Source: Eledone cirrhosa (lineage: Eukaryota). Taken from it: a stretch of 64,000 bases of DNA. Of this stretch, positions 20,425 to 60,666 are shown piece by piece (within the stretch, counting starts at the first letter, position 1; each line of letters starts with the position of its first letter). The translations under genes and the position numbers were made by a program. Under the pieces are notes generated by a model, which did no database searches, was not told the DNA's origin, and worked only from the letters and a program-made list of their open reading frames with translations. Location: positions 266,290,001 through 266,354,000 of the forward strand of contig OZ024741.1 of NCBI GenBank assembly GCA_964016885.1, in the 5' to 3' direction.

Positions 20425-20640
20425 GGTGGTGTGTTGGCTGAATCGGTAAAGTGTCAGGACATATCTTGTGGTATTTAGTTGATTAACTTTACGTTCTGGG
20501 TTCGAATCCTACCGACGTAAACTCTACCTTCCGGGGTGAATTAAATAAATTACCAGTCAAATACTAGAACAAAAATATAATCAACTGTTCCCCACCCCGC
20601 CACATTAAAGATTATTGTCATTTACCCACGTTAGAAAAGA
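20425..20640 (+). mobile_element. Diverged tRNA-derived SINE
   Basis: ttggctgaatcggtaaag...gggttcgaatcc A/B boxes and a body similar to the other SINEs. Confidence 0.65.
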
Positions 20641-20671
20641 TTCTTTATCGAAAACTCTGCAGAATAAATAA

Positions 20672-20732
<61 letters not shown>

Positions 20733-20741
<9 letters not shown>

Positions 20742-21349
20742 AATATGGGTGAGAAGAATACTGCTGGTTGCACATGGATAACATGTTATAAAATGAGTCC
20801 CTCATCAGTGATTTACCAAACGATCATGGGTATTTCATCGCATTAAAAATCATATACCTCACGTTGGAGCGATAATAACTAAAATAAGTTATTAGGACAA
20901 TAGAAACGCGTAAAGCGAGTGAGACAAGTAAACAACACAGGGGGAAGCTAACCGAAGATGGAAATAAACACAAGCAACATAGTTATTCTTTCAGCATAAG
21001 CTGTGTGAATATATGCGCGAGTCGAAAACAGACCTTTCGCTAGTGAATCCGGTGTTAGAAAGAAGGAAAACCGTTTTCACAGCGAACGGGAGGAAGAAAG
21101 AAGGGGAGAAACAGGGACTGAGTGAGTGGGAGTGCGAGGAAGAGGTCAGTAGAGAGAAAATGTTAACTGACATGGCAGAGGGGACAAAAGAAATTAAGAG
21201 AAACAGAGAGAACGAGGGAGCAGTAAGAGAGAAAGAGAGAAACACAGAATTGCAGTTTGGGTAAATATATGAAAAATATGGGTGAGAAGAATACTGCTGG
21301 TTGCTCATGGATTACATGTTATATTGGTAAATCACTGATGAGGGACTCA
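20733..21349 (-). mobile_element. ~530-nt non-coding (TA)n-inserted element, copy B, with tail duplication and fold-back
   Basis: Homologous to 21915-22575 and 35489-35950. 21265-21323 repeats 20733-20790; 21324-21349 is an inverted copy of ~20794-20819. Confidence 0.8.
20797..20898 (-). ncRNA. Candidate non-cyclically permuted (pseudoknotted) hammerhead, copy B
   Basis: gtcc taataact..agttatta tcgc t ccaacg tga GGTAT A tgattt ttaat gcga t GAA ATACC catgat cgtttgg t aaatca CTGATGA g ggac. Confidence 0.75.
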
Positions 21350-21373
21350 CTATATATATATATATATATACAC

Positions 21374-21640
21374 ATAACGAAGGAGTTGTGGTAAGGAACC
21401 AGATGGACCATAACGCACCAGAGTACTCAATACTTAGGGTAGTAGAGTGGGTAATAGGAAAATGTATGACCCCGATGGCAGAGCTCAAGCCATTTCGACG
21501 TCTATTTCTGGACTAAATTAGAATTTTTAGCGTGGTAAAAAAAAGGGTATTTTTTTACCACGCTAAAAATTCTAATTTAGTCCAGAAATAGACGTCGAAA
21601 CGGCTTGAGCTCTGCCGTCAGGATCATACACTTTCCTATA
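21374..21640. mobile_element. Fold-back PLE-like 3' fragment carrying the 3' half of a type I HHR
   Basis: Arms 21455-21544 and 21550-21638; gtc-GAAA-cggc-ttgagctct-gccg-TC. Same family at 19670-19762, 22873-23135 and 26750-26950. Confidence 0.78.
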
Positions 21641-21655
21641 TATATATATATATAC

Positions 21656-21760
<105 letters not shown>

Positions 21761-21801
21761 ATATATATAAATATATATATATATAATATATATATATATA
21801 T

Positions 21802-21845
<44 letters not shown>

Positions 21846-21846
21846 T

Positions 21847-21918
<72 letters not shown>

Positions 21919-21970
21919 AGAAAAATGGAGAGCTGCGTGGTTACACATGGGTTACATATGAATAAAATTA

Positions 21971-22072
21971 GTCCTTCATCAGTGATCTTCCAACTTTCAT
22001 TGGTATTTTATCGCTTTAAAAATCATATACCTCTAGTTGGTGCGAGCAATAACTAAATAAAGTTATTGGGAC
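21971..22072 (-). ncRNA. Candidate permuted hammerhead, copy A (G12 mutated to A)
   Basis: gtcc caataact..agttattg c tcgc a ccaact aga GGTAT A tgatttt taaa gcga t AAA ATACC aatgaa agttgg aagatca CTGATGA a ggac. Confidence 0.65.
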
Positions 22073-22474
22073 AAGTAAAATAGGGTGAAACGAGCGAGAC
22101 GTGTAAACAAACAACGATGGTATTGCAACGGAAAGATAGGAAGAGACAAGTACATGATATCTGTAAGCTTAAGTTTGGTGAAATCATGGACGAGAGATAC
22201 AGACCATCCGACATGGGTGAGATGTGAGCGAGAAAAGGATTTCACACAGGTCAAACGGAAGGAAATGAGAGAGGGGGAGAAGAAGAGAGTGAGTGAGTGG
22301 AAGTGTGGGGAAGAGACCATCCGAGAGAGAGTGTGACTGGCAGAGGGGGTAAAAATAAGGTGAGAGATACAGAGAGAGGGGAAGCAGTAAGAAAGAAACA
22401 GACAATCGCAGCTGAGGAAAAAATATAAATATGAGAAAAATTGAGAGCTGCGTGGTTGCACATGGGTTACATAT

Positions 22475-22568
22475 AACTTTATTTAGTTGTTGCTCGCACC
22501 AACTAGAGGTATATGATTTTTAAAGCGATGAAATACCAATGAAAGTTGGAAGATCACTGATGAAGGAC
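22475..22568 (+). ncRNA. Candidate permuted hammerhead, inverted partial copy with intact core
   Basis: GGTAT(22508-12) A tgatttt .. gcgat GAA ATACC(22533-37) .. aagatca CTGATGA(22557-63) aggac. Lacks the 5' gtcc strand. Confidence 0.65.
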
Positions 22569-22599
<31 letters not shown>

Positions 22600-22872
22600 T
22601 AAAATAACAGATTAAAGTTTAAGCAAAGAATCGCTGCTTTCACCCTTAACGGGATCTTGGACTAGAACTATTTCATTCGTGAGAAATAATCAGGAAGCTG
22701 ACTGTCCAAGTAATATGGCGGTATTTATATATTTTCTGGTGGTAGGAGAGGGTGGTGATTGGGATGGGTGGAGGTCATTCGTTGAGGGGTTTTTCTATAT
22801 TAAATATTTATACTCTGCCTTGTATTTACTGTGGTTACCCTCGATTGAACCCGGATAAACTTATATATATAT

Positions 22873-23130
22873 ATAACGAAGGAGATGTGGTAAAGAACCA
22901 GATGGACCATAACACACCAGAGTACTCAATACTTAGGGAAGTAGAGGGGGTAATAGGAAAAAGTATGACCCCGACGGCTATTTTTGGACTAGACACAACA
23001 GATTCCTACAACAACTCCATAGCAAAATAACATGGTATGAAAACACCAACGACATCATGGTGCACTCGAACAAAACTAGTCCAGAAATAGCCGTCGAAAC
23101 GGCTTGAGCTCTGCTGTCGGGGTCATACTT

Positions 23131-23135
<5 letters not shown>
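22873..23135. mobile_element. Fold-back PLE-like 3' fragment (family of 21374-21640)
   Basis: Sequence homology; flanked by (TA)n. Confidence 0.75.
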
Positions 23136-23199: not shown

Positions 23200-23766
23200 C
23201 AAGAAGTATAAGTTAACATTTCATAATTTACTTCTTTCATTACTGTTAAATTTCTGTGATAGCCGCAATTCAACAACTATGACCTCTTCATACAGGTAGA
23301 AGCAGCACAGAAAACATTTTTTTTTTTTTTTTTTTTTTTTCTTGGAGGAAAAATAATTGTTTCTACTTTTGGCACAAGGCCAGCAATTACCCAGTGCATT
23401 GCTGGTACTTTATTTTATCGACCCCGTAAGGATGAAAGGCAAAGTCAACCTCGGCGGGATTTGAACTCAGATCGTAAAGGGACGTAACTATGCTGGAAAG
23501 CATGGTGTCAAACCCTCTACCGATACTGCCAATCCACCGCAATTTTCTTGGAGGAAAAATAATTGTTTCTACTTTTGGCACAAGGCCATCAATTACCCAG
23601 TACATTACTGGTACTTTATTTTATCGACCCCGTTTTTTACTTCCTATGTGTTGCTTCTAACTGTCGGAAGAGGTCATAGATGTTGGATTGCAACTATCAC
23701 CGAAATATATATAACTGTAATGAAAGAAGTAAATTATGAAATGTTTCCTTATACTTCTTGTTTATA
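23194..23766. mobile_element. Old fold-back element (arms ~23194-23312 and ~23642-23766) with a degenerate HHR in each arm, interrupted by SINEs (23352-23632, -)
   Basis: Arms are reverse complementary. Their consensus restores ctgt-CTGAAGA-ggtcatag..ctatcacc-GAAA-tatata-TA-acag. Confidence 0.7.
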
Positions 23767-24714: not shown

Positions 24715-24764
<50 letters not shown>

Positions 24765-24770
<6 letters not shown>

Positions 24771-25754
24771 GAAGAGAGAAGAAACATTTAGATATAATTA
24801 GTAATAAAATGTATCATACCTAAACTGCTCCTAAATTCCTCGACTACGTAGTTTCGTGGCATAAACAAAAACAATATATCAAAGATATAGAGTCCTTGCG
24901 AGGTCTGCCGACATATCAAGAGGATACCTCATTTTACTAGTCTCAAGAACGCGTCTACACGACGTGAGAAAGAATCCCAAAAGGCGGAGGGGGAGATAGT
25001 CACGCGATATAACGGTCGAGAAACAGAGCTAAGCCTCTTATAACCCCGAAGAAAATACCACGGAGGCGGAGGGGGTATTTATATCGAGGCCGTAGAAGAG
25101 GTGGTGAAGAAGGCGAGAAGTATGAGTAATGGAAGCTTTCCAGCTGTCCCCACACTTCAAAGTTTGCTCGACCAGAGGGAGTTATTAACAATATATTTAG
25201 AAACACACAGATACATGCGGACACACACACATATATACATGAATGCATCCGCACCCACCTCTTCTACGGCCTCGATATAAATACCCCCTCCGCCTCCGTG
25301 GTATTTTCTTCGGGGTTATAAGAGGCTTAGCTCTGTTTCTCGACCGTTATATCGCGTGACTATCTCCCCCTCCGCCTTTTGGGATTCTTTCTCACGTCGT
25401 GTAGACGCGTTCTTGAGACTAGTAAAATGAGTTATCCTCTTGATAAGTCGGCAGACCTCGCAAGGACTCTATATCTTTGATATATTGTTTTTGTTTATGC
25501 CACGAAACTACGTAGTCGAGGAATTTAGGAGCAGTTTAGGTATGATACATTTTATTACTAATTATATCTAAATGTTTCTTCTCTCTTCATAATGTATTTT
25601 TAACTCTGATACTGGTTCAGTCTAGTTCAACTGAATTGGTCTGTCCCAGTCATTCATTGAGCAACATCGGTGAAGTTGGCACCCTTAACTCACAGTTGGG
25701 TGCGGATGCATTCATGTATATATGTGTGTGTGTCCGCATGTATCTGTGTGTTTC

Positions 25755-25843: not shown

Positions 25844-26743
25844 TACGAGGTGGGTCAGAAAAGTTCCAGGACTGATGTCACAAAAGATTTATTTCAAACC
25901 CAAACTTCACACTAAGAGTTTTCTCCTGCAAAGTAATCCCCCTGGAGTCTAATGCACTTTTCCATCCTTTTCTGCCACGCTTGCATGCACTCCTCGAAGG
26001 ATTCTTCCGGGATCCACCGCAGTTCCGTCGTCACGGCTTTTTTGATGTCGTCCACGTCTTCAAAACGGGTCCCCTCCGGGTCGTACTCGAAGATCCATGA
26101 CTCATCATCGGTGATGACTGTCCCTAGCAAGTCTGGTTCGGTTTCAAGACGCTCGAGGATGTCCTGGCACACTTCCATGCGTCGACCCTTCTGGTCATCG
26201 TTCAGCAGGTTTGGCACCATCTTCGCGCAGACTTTCCGCATGTCCAAATCTTCAGTGAGAATCTTCCAGACGCTGTCCCGATTCATGCCCAGCTCATTTG
26301 CCATCAGTCGAACAGTCAGCCGACGATGGCTACGCACCATCTGCCTGACGCGCTCAACGTTGACCTCAGTCCTGGTTGTTGAGGGTCTTCCGCTCCTGGG
26401 GTCATCTTCCACGTCCTTGTGTCCTTCTTTAAACCTCTTGCACCACTCAAAAACACGTGAGCGTGACATCGTCTCATCTCCATACACTTGCTGCAGCAAT
26501 CCCAGTGCTTCTGGCGGAGTTTTCAAGTTTGTTCGTTGCTCTGTGCTCATTGCTTGACGGCCTGAAACAGAGGACATGTATATAAAATGATGTAGAAAAA
26601 AGTTTGATCGCTGCAGAGAGCTAAGATTACAGTTACATATTCCAGGGGGATTACTTTGAAGGAGAAAACTCTTAGTGTGAAGTTTGAGTTTGAAATAAAT
26701 ATTTTGTGACATCAGTCCTGGAACTTTTCTGTCACACCTCCTA
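25844..26743 (-). mobile_element. Mariner (Tc1/mariner) element, internally deleted, with ~100-bp inverted ends, inserted in (TA)n
   Basis: Ends tacgaggtgggtcagaaaagttccaggact / agtcctggaacttttctgtcacacctccta; contains a transposase remnant. Confidence 0.93.
25912..26550 (-). pseudogene. Mariner transposase remnant
   Basis: HTH region SRSRVFEWCKRFKEG..DDPRSGRPST, AKMVPNLL (WVPHEL-like), VITDDESWIFEYDPE joined directly to GTRFEDVDDIK..W.KR..KCI..QGDYF. The segment with the 2nd and 3rd catalytic Asp is deleted. Confidence 0.92.
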
Positions 26744-26749
26744 TATATA

Positions 26750-26950
26750 TGACAAAGAAAGTGTGGTAAGGAACCAGGAGGGACATAACGCACTAGAGTA
26801 CTCGATACTTAGCGTAGTAGAGTGGGTAATAGGAAGAGTCAGGACACCGACGGCTGAGCTCCGGCCGTTTCGACAGCTAGATCCGAACAGTTCGGATCTA
26901 GCTGTCGAAACGGCCGGAGCTCAGCCGTCGGGGTCCTGACTCTTTTCCTA
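26750..26950. mobile_element. Fold-back PLE-like 3' fragment with half an HHR
   Basis: Hairpin centred on ccgaac-a-gttcgg (26889); gtc-GAAA-cggc-cggagctca-gccg-TC-ggggtc. Confidence 0.78.
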
Positions 26951-27379
26951 TATATATACTCACCCATATTTTACACTTGCCACAACTTCACCATCTACAA
27001 GTCTTCATATGTTATTATAGCTGTTATTGTTGTTATTGTTCTGTCGTTCCACATCAGTCCTGCTGATCGATTACCTATAATAAAAATCACTTTAGCCGTG
27101 ACCATGATCAAAGTCAGTTTAGATGTAGCCATCTTGTGATTTTATATATATATATATCAAGTAAGTATGTTTTGAAACAGTGAGCAAGTTTGAAATTAGA
27201 AAATATATAGCTTTCACCGTATTTTTTACTAAAGAAATTTTAGCCTGATAATGGGGTTTAGAACCCTCAGATAAATGGAAAAAGATGAGTATTGACGTAC
27301 ATGTACGTCATCAGGCTAAAATTCCTTTAGTCAAAAATACGAAAAATACTCTATCTAAAAATACTCTATCTCAAAATTA

Positions 27380-29359: not shown

Positions 29360-29759
29360 TTAGAAATATAAGCTATCGCCGTATTTTGACTAAAGAAATT
29401 AAAGAAATTATTTAGCCTGATAGTGGGGTTAAGAACCCTCGGAGAAATGGAAAATGATGAGTATTGACGTACATGGGTGTCGAACCCACATCTGCGGTTA
29501 TCCAGGCTACTGTGCTACCATTACACCAACACATCACCCGTCTTCTTCCATTCAAATTAGAAGCTATAATCTTAGCAAGTGTAATATGTCAAGTAAGAAT
29601 ATTTTCGAAACAGCGAGCGGGTTTGAAATTAGAAATATAAGCTAAGTTCTTAACCCCACTATCAGGCTAAATAATTTCTTTAATTTCTTTAGTCAAAATA
29701 CGGCGATAGCTTATATATCTAATTTCAAATCCACTCGCTGTTTCGAAAATATTCTTGCT

Positions 29760-30305: not shown

Positions 30306-30861
30306 AAGGAACGCTTCCTGAACCATCAGTCGACCTTTAAGTACCCGGACAAACGATCAGCCACGAAACTCTCGAGCCACGTATAGTCCCTCAAAGACTC
30401 AAGTATAGACTACTCCATTCAATGGAAAGCCATCACTAAGTCCAAGCCATACGCAAGGGGCAATCCGTCGTGTGGACTGTGTATTGAAGAAAGGATAAAT
30501 ATTCTAAGGTGATTACGCAATAGCGATTGCCTAAATTGAAGAAATGAAATCTTCTCACGTTGTCCACATGTCTGGAAACACCTCTTGAATAACAACATTC
30601 TAATTTTCTTATCAACTCGAACATTTTTTTCAACTTTTGCAGTTAACTGCCTTACACGTTTCGCCCGTGGCTTTGTATCGCTTGGGTGAAGTGACCGTTT
30701 CTGCGCATGCACGTTCATACGGTTGTTCTTTCTGAAGATCCGCTAAGGTGAAACAATTGTTCTCGGTATGGTGAACTAACTGTTGTGTTACCACTTCTAC
30801 CTAACTTGTGCCATGGACTGAGTGCTCTACCACTACGGATAATACCTTCCAGTGTTCTACC
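30306..30861 (+). mobile_element. 5'-truncated Penelope-like element (GIY-YIG C-terminus, 3' UTR, HHR at 30732-30766)
   Basis: Frame from 30306: KERFLNHQSTFKYPDKRSATKLSSHV*SLKDSSIDYSIQWKAITKSKPYARGNPSCGLCIEER..CLN*RNEIFSRCPH, then CTGAAGA-tccgctaaggt-GAAA-caattg-TT-ctcg. Confidence 0.85.
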
Positions 30862-35406: not shown

Positions 35407-35485
<79 letters not shown>

Positions 35486-35488
35486 AAA

Positions 35489-35950
35489 TATGAAAATAAT
35501 AGGCTGCCCGTTGCAAATGGTGGGGCATGTGAAAAAGTAGGTCCTTCATCAGTGACCCTCCAACCGTCCCAGGCATTTCATCGCTTTAAGGGCCATATGC
35601 CTCAGGTTGGTGCGAACAACGGCTAAAAAAAGTCGTTGGGACACGTAAACAAAGGGGACGCCAGGGTAACAAACAAAAAAGTTTAAGCAACGGAAAGTGA
35701 GAAGAAATAGACAAGTCCCAGATCTCTATGAATATAAACTCGGTGAAATCGTGAACAAGAGACAAAAGACCATCAAACCTGGTTGAAATGTGAGCAAGGA
35801 AAGAATTTCGCCCAAGTTTGACGGGGGGGGGGGGGGGGAGAAAAGAGAGGAGAAGAAGAAGAAGAAGAAGAAGAAGAAGAAGAAGAAGAAGAAGAAGAAG
35901 AAGAAGAAGAAGAAGATAAAGGGGTCTGGTCTACGAATTCGGTAAACATA
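35489..35950 (-). mobile_element. ~460-nt non-coding element, copy C of the permuted-HHR family
   Basis: Homologous to copy A across the body (e.g. gctcacat, gatggtc, gatttcacc, acttgtct, tttccgttgc); pyrimidine tract expanded as (CTT)n. Confidence 0.8.
35541..35642 (-). ncRNA. Candidate non-cyclically permuted (pseudoknotted) hammerhead, copy C, complete
   Basis: gtcc caacgact..agccgttg t tcgc a ccaacc tga GGCAT A tggccct taaa gcga t GAA ATGCC tgggac ggttgg agggtca CTGATGA a ggac. Confidence 0.78.
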
Positions 35951-52426: not shown

Positions 52427-52610
52427 CATATATATATATGCAGAGGTTATATTTAATTTGTTGGGATTCAACAAGCTTAAAAATGTTTATAACTGATATA
52501 AAGCACTCAACAAATTAGTGGAGTAAATAGTAAATAGTATCCAGGGAGCTCCAACCGTTAAGGTTGTCTTTTTTCCGGGTATGTCAATATTTATTTATAA
52601 AACAAATCTG

Positions 52611-52676
52611 TATTTTATCTGATGAAAGCGCACCATAATTTGCCTTGGTTGCCCTTGAAATATGTATAATAAAATA
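52611..52676 (+). ncRNA. Minimal type I hammerhead motif
   Basis: tattttat-CTGATGA-aagcgcacca..tggttgccctt-GAAA-tatgta-TA-ataaaata. Confidence 0.75.
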
Positions 52677-52738
52677 AATATGGTTTTATAAATATAGTTT
52701 CCATTTATTAATATATTGTATATATATATATATATATG

Positions 52739-56937: not shown

Positions 56938-58431
56938 TTTCTTTATTAGCCACAGGGGCACAAAAGAAGGGGACAAATACAAAGGGGGAAGTTTACATAC
57001 AATAAAAACGTGTAAAATGTTATCACAGATGGAATTTAAAAGTTAGTCGATTTTCCCCAATAGAGGGAGACAGTTTATATGGGTAACACATACCCCCGAA
57101 AAAAAATGTGCAACCCTCATCTCCAGGAGTACGAAGAGCTTGTACTCCTTTCCTCTCCTCCTCCTTTTCCTCAACCTACAGGCTGATATAGAGAGAAGGC
57201 CCATTCACTCGGGCCATTCTCGCCACTTTCACCCACCTTTCATAAAACTTGCTGGGGTACAGCACCTCTCTCTCCATCCTGATTCTTCTTCCAAAGTGGT
57301 ATTTGAAAAAAAGAATCAGTTGTTGGCCGGAGAGAAAGGTGTCTGACCTCAGCCCTTTCAACCTTGTCCACCATACAACCTCTTTCGCCATAGCTATCAC
57401 ACAAAGAAAAACCGCCTCTCCTTCGTTTTTGAAGGAGGGTGGCGGTTTGATCATGACAATGGACTCGGTGGTCAACTGGATTGGTCCCACCCGCGACAAT
57501 AGTCGTTCTACATAGCCCCACAGGTCAGTGACGCCCGGGCAGTGTATGAATGCGTGCGCGACGGTTTCTTCGTCTCGCACGCACCTCGGACAGATCTTTT
57601 TTGCAGGGTCCCTGCCCGGGCGCCCATGTCTGTAGAGCTTGTGGGAAGGCTCGCCTCACGAACGGGGCCCACACCGGTTGTCCGGTGAGGAATACGTAGA
57701 GATGCCGCAGCCTGAGCGCGTGTTTGCGCATCGCCAACCACGGCATCCCCAGCCCTCCGTTAGAAGGGTGTTGGCAGCAGATGGATCTTCTCACCAAAGG
57801 AGCCCGCCTCTTCCAAAGGAATCGGAAGAGCGCGCGCTCCATTTTGGCGAGCGTTTTGGCTGGACAAGGCACGACGGTCAAGCGGTAGTAGATGGCGGAC
57901 GCTATAAAAGTGTTCGCCACCTCCGCTCGACCTTTCAAGGATAGTTTGCACTCGGCCCACTTCTGGGTGAGTGCAAACACCTTGGCCGTCACTTCGTTCC
58001 AGTTCTTCTCCACCTGGAGGTCCGGACCAAACCAGACCCCGAGCAGCTTTACCGGTCCTTCCGTCCAGCGTCCGACGACGCCATCGGAAGGTATCAGTCT
58101 GCCTCTCCACGATCCGAGTTGCAAACCGATGGACTTGTCCCGGTTCAGCTTCGCTCCTGTGAGACTTTCGTATTCCTTTAGTAAGGTGCCGACTTCCTCG
58201 ATTTGCGAGGCGCTCGACACCATTACTGTCACGTCGTCGGCGTAGGCCGACGCCGCTTTCCGCAGTCCCGGTTCCAGAGGGATGCCCTGCAATAGCTCCA
58301 GCTTCCGCAGTAGTGGCTCGAGAGTCAGTACGTACAGAAGGGAGGAGAGAGGGCATCCCTGTCGAATGGATCGCGTAATATGGAACGGCTCCGAGAGGTA
58401 ACCGTTCACCTTGACCCTTGAGCAGATGTTG
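56938..58431 (-). mobile_element. Tx1/L1-like LINE, copy 3 (partial RT to 3' end, internal deletion)
   Basis: RSIRQGCPLSSLLY, AYADDVTV, KLLGVWFG, GGLGMP motifs. Confidence 0.92.
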
Positions 58432-58460
58432 ATAAATAGATAGATAGATAGATAGATAGA

Positions 58461-60666
58461 TTTCTTTATTTGCCACAAGGGCGCACAAGAAAAGGGGACA
58501 ATACAAAGACACATGCCGAGGATTTTACATGCAGTCGTGTAAAAAAAAAAAAAAAAACAATTATAACAATCGAAATCCCTAATAGGGGGGGAGATGTCAC
58601 AAATGGGTTGTTTAATACCCCGTCGATAGAACAACCCTCAACTTCAGGAACGTGTTGTGGAAGTGCTCCCTTCTTCCTTTTGCTCTCTTCTTTAACCTAC
58701 AGGCTTATAAACAGAGAAGGCCCAATCACTCGGGCCATTTTCGCTTCATTCACCCACCGTTCAGTAAATTTACTGGGGTGCAGTGCCTCTCTCTCCACAG
58801 CGAGACAAGTTGTGGGAAGGCCTGTCTCACAAACGGTGCCCACACCGGTTGGTCGGTGAGGAATACGTGAAGATGCTGTAGCCTCAGCGCATGTTTGCGC
58901 ATCATTAGCCACGGCATGCCCAGCCCTCCGTTGGAAGGGTGTTGACAGTAACTGGAAGTGCATGCGTTCCATCTTGGTGAGGTATTCACGGGGACAAGGC
59001 ACGACAGTCAAGCGGTAGTAGATGACGGACGCTATGAAAGTGTTCGCCACCTCTGCTCGACCTTTCAAAGACAGTTTGTACTCTGCCCACTTCTGGGTGA
59101 GCGCAAATACCTTGGCCATGACCTCGTTCCAGTTTTTCTCCACCTGGAGGTTTGGACCGAACCAGACCCTGAGCAATTTTACCGGTCCTTCCGTCCAGCG
59201 TCCCGACGACGCTGTCAGACGGCATCGGTTTGCCTCTCCACGTTCCGGGTTGCAAACCGACAGACTTGTCCGGGTTCAGCTTTGCTCCTGTGAACCTTTC
59301 GTATTCCTGTAGTAGGTTGCCGATTACCTCGATTTCCGAGGTTTTCGACACCATTACCGTCACGTCGTCGGCATAAGCCGACGCCACTTTTCGCAGTCTC
59401 GGTTCTAAAGGATGCCCTGAAAAATCTCCAACTTCCGCAGTAGTGGCTCTAGAGTCAATACATACAGAATGGAGGAGAGAGGGCATCCCTGTCGAATGGA
59501 ACGCGTGATTGCGAACGGCTCCGATAGGTAGCCGTTCACCTTGACCCTCGAGCAGATGCTGTTGTGCATTGCCTTGATCCAGCCTCTGAAAACGGAATCG
59601 AAACCGGCCGCCTTGAGAACCGCTTCCAAGTATCGGTGGTCGACCCTATCGAATGCCTCAGACTGATCTAAATTGACCAGAGCCCCACCGAAGCCGGGTT
59701 TACACCTCACCCTCTCTATGATGCATCGCATGAGGTGGAGTTTGTCGTGTATGGACCTGGTCGGAATTGCACACGTTTGCGCTTTCCCTACCAGGTTTTC
59801 GACGACAAGCGCCAGCCTCGTTGCTAGCATCTTGGCCAAAATCTTTAACTCTGTGTTGAGCAGAGTTATAGGCCTGAAATTGTTTATTTCGTCCCCCTTG
59901 TTCTCGTCTTTCCTGATCAGCGTTACTACGCCCTTGCCTGCAGAACTGGGAATTGTCCCGTTCTACTGCCAATTGCAGTAGACGGCTTCGAGGACGCCAG
60001 AGAACAAGTCCGGCATGCCTATGTAAAACTCATAGGCTAGACCAACTAGACCGGGTGACTTGCGTTTACTGCAGCGGCCCAGAACGTCCCGTATCTCAGT
60101 GTCCGTGATCGGTCTTTCGCAGAACTCGGCGTCCGTGTTCGAGAGACGCGGCAGGCCGTCGAGGTATGAACTAAAGTCCATTGCCCCGTTCCGCTCACCG
60201 TCGTTCTGCTCAAACAGTCGTGCAAAGTGCTGCTGAAAGGCCACGCACATTTGCTTGGGGTCATGTAGCACGCGTCCGTTTTGGTCTTTCAAAGACCAAA
60301 TTGTGGACTTGTTGCCACTTTTTGCCTCCGCCACTCGGGCCCAGTTGACAGCTTTCGCTCCTTCGTTTCCTAGAGCACGTGTTTTGCTTCTGACCACGCA
60401 GCCTTCGTGTTTCGCGTCGAAGAACTCGTCCAGTGCCGTTCTCGATGCTAGCACTCTAGCTGCATTGCCACTCCTAAGCGCCTCTTCTACTTTGGCTACT
60501 AGTTCTGTTTCTGATTTGTTTTTCTCTAAAGCTAATTCTCTGCTAAACCCTATCGATTGAGAGAGTACCACCATCTATTGTTGACAATGGCTCCCGTCAA
60601 CTCTTGCTTAACTAATCTACTTATCCGTTCATTGTAGGCTTTTCGTGCCGGCAACGACACGTTCAA
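58461..60666 (-). mobile_element. Tx1/L1-like LINE, copy 4 (sister subfamily; frameshifted ORF2 from post-endonuclease linker through RT)
   Basis: KSPGLVG, LDQSEAFDRVDH, IRQGCPLS, AYADDV motifs across frames; different 3' UTR; bounded by (TAGA)n. Confidence 0.92.

Follow-up and report, generated by a model that had tools for sequence, protein, structure and literature searches.

The 64,000-nt stretch of Eledone cirrhosa DNA analysed here (the window) contains three copies, A, B and C, of a short repeat that is read on the minus strand. Copy A comprises a full 515-nt non-coding unit (21916..22430, minus strand), delimited by sequence alignment and composed of a pyrimidine-rich head, a ribozyme domain and a 3′ tail. 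Directly upstream lies a 44-nt repeat of the unit's own 3′ tail (22431..22474, minus strand; alignment), corresponding to the "tail" of PLEs, which has 3 mismatches in 44 positions against the 3′ tail and 2 nt in common with the adjoining inverted piece. The tail-to-head junction thus formed (22431|22430, minus strand) was also found in other copies in sequencing runs. The inverted piece is a 105-nt fragment (22473..22577, plus strand; alignment) derived from 21962-22066, with 98% identity over the 105 nt, which spans the predicted cut site and keeps the core residue G12 but is devoid of the helix strand d′, as described below. A repeat scan placed (TA)n flanks at the 3′ end of the copy (21637..21915), the likely target, and at its inverted end (22575..22599). 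The order on the minus strand is consequently (TA)n, inverted fragment, tail, full unit, (TA)n.

Copy B is organised likewise, with an inverted 26-nt fragment containing the CUGAUGA block (21324..21349, plus strand), an upstream tail and junction (21267..21323, minus strand), a full 530-nt unit with an intact core (20737..21266, minus strand; ribozyme domain at about 20797-20898) and (TA)n. The initial annotation had placed the parts of copy A (inverted piece, tail, unit and (TA)n), which proved correct to within 2 nt, and had attributed the same layout to copy B, which the coordinates above bear out. Units A and B are colinear from end to end, with 382 of 544 alignment columns identical (70%) and both boundaries in common, and both start with ATTTA right after the junction. 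Copy C (approximately 35480..35850, minus strand) is truncated at its 5′ end into a CTT/C tract and terminates in (CA)n(TA)n. Its alignment to copy A covers 339 nt with 70% identity; the core is intact, and compensatory changes are found in stem I, stem III and helix e. At 35480-35490, copy C ends with ATTTAC before the (CA)n, the first six bases of unit B, a weak hint at a start a few bases inside the next repeat. A model built on the window copies (R2) gave no matches in the window beyond the five known pieces.

The unit has a GC content of 41%, and pyrimidines make up 71-74% of its first 330 nt. The longest ATG-initiated frame on the ribozyme strand spans 133 codons in copy A, where it runs across the junction, and 60 codons in copy B; there is therefore no conserved ORF, and the 133-codon frame, not being kept in B, was ruled out as a gene. 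The unit accordingly has no coding capacity, and its layout includes no LTR pair. Between the predicted cut site (22026|22025) and the 3′ end of the unit there are 110 nt. A pyrimidine tract, the lack of a credible ORF and a ribozyme about 110 nt from the 3′ end, all previously described from the sequence, were thus recovered.

The distribution of the family was assessed by comparing the unit with four DNA sequencing runs at 80% likeness, which yielded matches in 2654 contigs of run X1, 24 contigs of X4, 4203 reads of X10 and 3810 reads of X12, showing that the unit belongs to a multicopy non-coding family. Depth was highest on the ribozyme domain and fell steeply toward the head. Unrelated simple repeats may contribute to the peaks in the GA-rich middle, and the depth of RAD data is influenced by cut sites. 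Tail-to-head junctions were found in seven X1 contigs, with periods of 515, 515, 515, 514, 516, 510 and 499, and in four X12 reads, with periods of 515, 515, 515 and 514; one of the X1 contigs matches the window junction without a difference and may derive from this very locus. Randomly differing junctions, named in the initial annotation as an observation that would speak against its reading, were thus not what the runs contained, since five of seven X1 contigs fall within 514-516 and all four X12 reads within 514-515. No step in depth occurs at the predicted cut site (1344 then 1227 in X10, counting both mates; 1421 then 1359 in X12). A (TA)-rich loose end at 21956, representing copies without the tail, was present in 32 X1 contigs and fits a second start site. 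When the unit's own family pattern was used against viral and prokaryote collections, no matches were returned.

The ribozyme domain can be modelled as a predicted type-SGC hammerhead with a split stem II (21971..22072, minus strand). In copy A, read 5′ to 3′ on the minus strand, strand d′ (22072-22069) is followed by hairpin e (22067-22048), a′ (22045-22042) and b (22040-22035), then by stem III (22031-22027), N17 (22026) and stem I (22025-22019). Further downstream come a (22014-22011), U11.1 (22010), the G12 position (22009, an A here) and III′ (22006-22002), and finally b′ (21995-21990), I′ (21989-21983), CUGAUGA (21982-21976), A10.1 (21975) and d (21974-21971). The blocks thus appear in the order cut site (GGUAUA), GAAA, CUGAUGA, abbreviated S-G-C, which is a non-circular permutation; canonical type I, II or III readings were rejected, since no circular rotation of S-G-C yields any of them. 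By analogy with the hammerhead core, self-cleavage is predicted after AUA, between 22026 and 22025 on the minus strand. The full core (CUGAnGA, GAAA, A15.1-U16.1 and H17) is present in B, C and the inverted piece, and the full unit of copy A carries G12A.

The CUGAnGA and GAAA blocks are not joined by a direct stem II, at most one pair (10.1-11.1) being present in the window copies. Instead, the predicted pairing is between the strand that follows CUGAUGA and an upstream GUCC (helix d), and between the strand that precedes GAAA and an upstream UCGC (helix a). Hairpin e sits between the upstream strands of a and d, and helix b forms an extension of stem III. In the predicted structure, stem II would thus be replaced by a four-way junction. 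The motif is therefore regarded as a candidate hammerhead variant, having the type-SGC order and core without the corresponding stem II, and its predicted self-cleavage is an extrapolation from known hammerheads, given the abnormal stem II.

The full unit of copy A is predicted to be inactive in its present form. Position 22009 is A in this unit and G in the inverted piece, and is one of only 2 differences between the two in 103 nt. The G form was found in 1328 of 1342 reads of X10, 1409 of 1417 reads of X12 and 122,736 of 122,882 units of contig depth in X1 (about 99%). The loss of G12 is thus private to copy A, which agrees with the earlier suggestion that this mutation likely arose after insertion.

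Pairing over four window sequences was complete in 98.4% of 122 cells, as opposed to 32-50% in controls with slid partners, where the four sequences represent three independent copies, the structure was derived from these same copies, and helices a and d are invariant among them. Two-sided changes occurred in 6 of 33 pairs over the four sequences, including two in stem I and one in stem III; the covariation of the modelled helices in the window is thus supportive, not a test. At the helix b positions 22035/21995 (U-A to C-G), the two changes occurred at matching, unphased frequencies in the runs (87% and 88% in X1, 69% and 71% in X10). An S-G-C descriptor demanding at least 4 bp in each of stems I and III gave three matches in the window, all of them family copies, and 100 block-wise dinucleotide shuffles of the window gave six matches to stems I and III and none with the full structure. 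An automatic full-structure filter was passed in the window by copy C only, copy B failing on helix e and the inverted piece being without helix d. Pseudoknot-free folding of five sequences, a procedure that cannot show helices a and I together, recovered helix e in all five, b/III in four and d in four, with z-scores of -0.9 to -1.5 for the window copies and of -3.0 and -3.9 for two metagenome loci. Searches for Rfam hammerheads gave none in the window at the gathering threshold and none over 20600-22700 at E up to 10; weak Rfam snoRNA matches in the region reflect CUGA/UGAUGA words.

The S-G-C order pattern was also searched in metagenomes, where 120 loci were drawn of an estimated 230. Since this pattern fixed the core bases and four stem III pairs, the recurrence of these features there is no evidence. 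A motif filter sorted 99 of the 120 loci, nearly all from two assemblies, to one repeat family, from which one was later dropped. Stems I and III are formed by 70 of the loci drawn, and the full structure by 39. Two subfamilies swap a stem I pair (C-G in 45 and U-A in 41 of 98) and a helix d pair (A-U in 35 and U-A in 28 of 71), and positions 10.1-11.1 are A/C, which do not pair. A looser, generic S-G-C pattern applied to viral contigs gave 120 loci with one weak structural match, which was taken as chance.

The metagenome copies are 5′-truncated and have a common 3′ end about 130 nt beyond the site. Two of the longest, L194 and L125, contain an ORF whose end is separated from the downstream motif by about 325 nt. 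The L194 ORF shows 59% identity to the C-terminal part of P0023, a protein of 954 aa with an N-terminal GIY-YIG match (E 7e-4), a DKA motif and a C-terminal RT; the Pfam GIY-YIG and RT scores for P0007 and P0023 are below the curated cut-offs. Judged by these motifs, the protein order in L194/P0023 is the Naiad layout. The R2 model did not detect the metagenome family, meaning that there is no detectable common sequence, and the link between the two families is therefore one of architecture, with helices kept by different sequences. The search for an autonomous PLE with the same 3′ domain, which the initial annotation had recommended, led to a Naiad-type element whose 3′ architecture is the same and whose sequence is not detectably in common. 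No coding Naiad with the window family's own 3′ sequence was seen among the metagenome contigs or the published Naiad consensi inspected, and a search of the viral collection with the Naiad protein gave no locus.

Published Naiad 3′ ends were compared by eye; the comparison took in roughly the final 330 nt in 44 of the 54 consensi, together with CTGATGA matches. In seven of the 44, distributed over four phyla, the S-G-C order could be fitted by eye with helices I, III, a, b, d and e (Obim, Ovul, Amil, Aacu, Anas, Plae and EuTe), the hosts being three Acropora, Pomphorhynchus, Eulimnadia and two Octopus. The fit includes mismatches in Aacu and an imperfect helix d in the Octopus consensi, and the Naiads of Beroe and Euprymna fit partially. 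The octopus consensi, for which a (TA)n preference is on record, agree with copy B in the 8-nt loop of hairpin e; their stem sequences and cut triplet differ from those of the window copies. In four nematode Naiads (3_Nbra, Hcon, Hpol and Asuum; PMC8557442 File S5), near-perfect stems were found in the order C-S-G, for which the available text of Eckert 2023 (PMC10085705) gives only two sequences, both from metagenomes. The remaining Naiad 3′ ends, inspected by eye over the last ~330 nt, showed no such hammerhead-like motif. Among the File S5 sequences, the 3′ ends of the mussel, clam, Limulus and Morbakka-1 Naiads carry what we take to be a motif resembling the twister ribozyme. Oyster Naiads have a different conserved motif of their own, and Darwinula Naiads a C-then-G core with unusual pairing (PMC8557442 File S5).

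According to the accessible part of the original description, canonical hammerheads were undetected in Naiads, and some elements were marked "HHR_core" or "half_core" (PMC8557442); the other half of these half cores lies 35-50 nt away from the mark in the same source (PMC8557442). Among the entries listed and the openly available texts on Naiad and PLE ribozymes, type-SGC hammerheads, non-circularly permuted hammerheads in retrotransposons (from 2023 on), four-way junctions in PLEs and cephalopod retrozymes, no report of a link between Naiads and type SGC was found.

The locus has much in common with Naiad PLEs as portrayed in the available text of PMC8557442, namely (TA)n targets, partial tandems, an adjacent inverted 5′-truncated copy and a tail of 30-40 bp. 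It differs in that the unit is without an ORF and 515 nt long, compared to 3.4-4.4 kb; the ORF of an autonomous Naiad (N-terminal GIY-YIG, CxC, DKA and C-terminal RT) is not in the unit, which has no conserved ORF. The non-autonomous elements that appear in the accessible text of that paper are Chlamys and not Naiads (PMC8557442). With type-SGC hammerheads, the motif has in common the order of site, GAAA and CUGAnGA, the full core, stems I and III and a linker of 3-4 nt between stem I and GAAA (PMC10085705). Those hammerheads, however, possess a true stem II and an I-II helix, whereas the strands here pair upstream around a hairpin, and in the available text they come almost only from metatranscriptomes, with none in the genome of a known organism, whereas the present motif lies in an animal retroelement (PMC10085705). 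Poseidon PAc, finally, resembles the locus in its AT-rich target, in two internal RT starts that bound the tail and in the extension of both strands, and differs in being autonomous, with a C-terminal endonuclease and a canonical hammerhead (PMC11167929).

Taken together, our preferred explanation, which we hold with moderate confidence, is that the unit is a non-autonomous Naiad-type PLE carrying a predicted S-G-C hammerhead whose stem II would be a four-way junction. RNA longer than one unit would arise when transcription reads through head-to-tail copies, and a Naiad GIY-YIG/RT protein acting in trans would nick (TA)n. One DNA end would then prime inside the RNA at the end of the tail, about 55 nt past the ribozyme domain, leading to a copy of one unit plus tail, while the other end would prime immediately 3′ of helix d, at an AU-rich stretch, and give, by backward copying of 26-105 nt, the inverted piece. 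In A as well as in B, the inversion breakpoint is no more than about 10 nt 3′ of helix d, and 2-3 nt further on the direct part starts again. In Poseidon PAc, two internal RT start sites bound the tail in vitro and both strands are extended (PMC11167929), this in vitro mechanism coming from a Poseidon and not from a Naiad (PMC11167929). The copied RNA was intact at the cut site; in other cases the ribozyme would reduce tandem transcripts to single units. This mechanism does not require a circle, though one may occur. For the Poseidon RT, unprocessed RNA was the main template in vitro and the hammerhead was not needed (PMC11167929). We consider it fairly probable that an uncleaved tandem transcript, as the simplest source, provided the template.

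Counted from the start of the tail, the boundary 22431|22430 is interior sequence and the template is one unit plus tail, and the junction alone therefore shows no circle. As a ligation site the junction was ruled out, since it lies 110 nt from the predicted cut site. The original interpretation as a mobile RNA of the retrozyme kind can thus be retained for the non-coding multicopy family, the PLE-type mobilisation and the non-random junction, whereas the circular or self-cleaved template that it proposed would be no more than a possibility, tail and inversion being ordinary PLE features for which an uncleaved tandem transcript can account.

A true retrozyme would arise if tandem transcripts self-cleaved, the 515-nt monomer were ligated to a circle, and a Naiad RT copied one unit plus tail from it. 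The period of ~515 nt is nearly fixed across copies, and about 99% of reads retain the core. In addition, had the upstream repeat served as the priming site for the inverted piece, copy A would stem from a template that ran through two uncut sites, both of which an active ribozyme would have cleaved in linear RNA. Animal non-LTR retrozymes form such circles (PMC7229834) and have been argued to derive from PLE ends (bioRxiv 2026.07.22.740005). The unit resembles them in being non-coding, head-to-tail, ribozyme-bearing, low in GC and likely PLE-dependent (PMC7229834; bioRxiv 2026.07.22.740005). Their hammerheads, in contrast, are of type I, their arrays range from dimers to long ones, and their circles are proven and highly self-paired (PMC7229834). 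The unit contains no type I hammerhead, its order being S-G-C without an Rfam hammerhead match, and on this ground we file it as a likely non-autonomous PLE and not as a retrozyme. Furthermore, two complete ribozymes in direct tandem occur nowhere in the window, tail-to-head junctions being present in other copies in the runs, the unit folded as a circle is weakly self-paired (39-41% of bases; z of -0.7 for A and -2.7 for B), and its 515 nt exceed the 170-400-nt circles of PMC7229834, though they are inside the 51-972-bp range of bioRxiv 2026.07.22.740005. Poseidon insertion in vitro also proceeds without a need for cleavage (PMC11167929). Overall, the formation of a circle appears rather doubtful to us.

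The copies might alternatively be what 5′ truncation left of the 3′ UTR in a longer, coding Naiad family, with no separate element. This would agree with the motif being a Naiad 3′ UTR feature, with the steep fall in depth from ribozyme to head, as expected from 5′ truncation, and with the truncated copy C. The head, however, joins its own tail and not coding sequence in A and B (30% diverged from each other), in the seven X1 contigs and in the four X12 reads, and random truncation would not produce a single period, which makes remnants a most improbable explanation. Another possibility is that the motif serves as a protein-recognition element, a landing site for the RT or the endonuclease, whose hammerhead-like core no longer self-cleaves. 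The abnormal stem II and the copies made with the site intact would suit such a role, as would the Poseidon hammerhead, which was cleaved only when protein was added (PMC11167929). Against it stand CUGAnGA, GAAA and A15.1-U16.1, which are in exact register across unrelated stems in four phyla (the metagenome set being excluded), and we deem such a recognition element with a non-cleaving core very unlikely. A more far-reaching proposal would be that Naiad hammerheads were missed because they are non-circularly permuted, the nematode ones having the order C-S-G and those of octopuses, corals, a crustacean and an acanthocephalan the order S-G-C plus a four-way junction in place of stem II, and that the unit is in addition a retrozyme whose 515-nt circular RNA is copied by a Naiad RT; this combination we regard as tentative and, as a whole, unlikely.

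In the accessible text of their work, Craig et al. 2021 (PMC8557442) concluded that canonical hammerheads are dispensable for the success of Naiads, and raised the question whether hammerheads are no more than parasites of PLEs. If true, a conserved, covarying and rewired hammerhead at Naiad 3′ ends would reverse this argument, and could be tested with short transcripts. It would also place non-circularly permuted hammerheads, so far almost only environmental, in animal genomes, give Naiads a non-autonomous partner family, and offer ribozyme structure work a hammerhead fold with a junction as stem II. The part concerning a retrozyme circle would matter less until such an RNA is seen.

Several other repeats were observed in the window. 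A second family lies between microsatellites at 8672-9057, 40251-40620 and 52440-52720, with fold-back copies at two of the sites, and CTGANGA also occurs at 10686 and 7573. Its cores are hammerhead-like and in canonical order, with CUGAnGA, a long stem II insert, GAAA and a short palindromic stem III, and it probably represents a further non-autonomous family of the PLE type. At 30732 and 63939 (also 61081) there are small motifs that resemble type I hammerheads and have a palindromic stem III, as known from PLEs. A third, (TA)-flanked family with long fold-backs is located at 21363-21639, 22862-23135 and 26742-26951, one copy lying between A and B, and contains a GAAAC-hairpin-GTC half motif with no CUGAnGA nearby. 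The same fold-back style is seen at 24757-25602, where inverted arms of 348 nt, 99% complementary and 150 nt apart, stand beside (TA)n. The segment 25850-26720 presumably represents a decayed mariner-like transposase, and a decayed LINE RT with RVT_1 homologues lies at 57000-60600 on the minus strand. A tRNA-like match is found at 29465-29535, and a dispersed, frequent SINE-like repeat of 190-300 nt occurs in the window, for example at 23350-23633.
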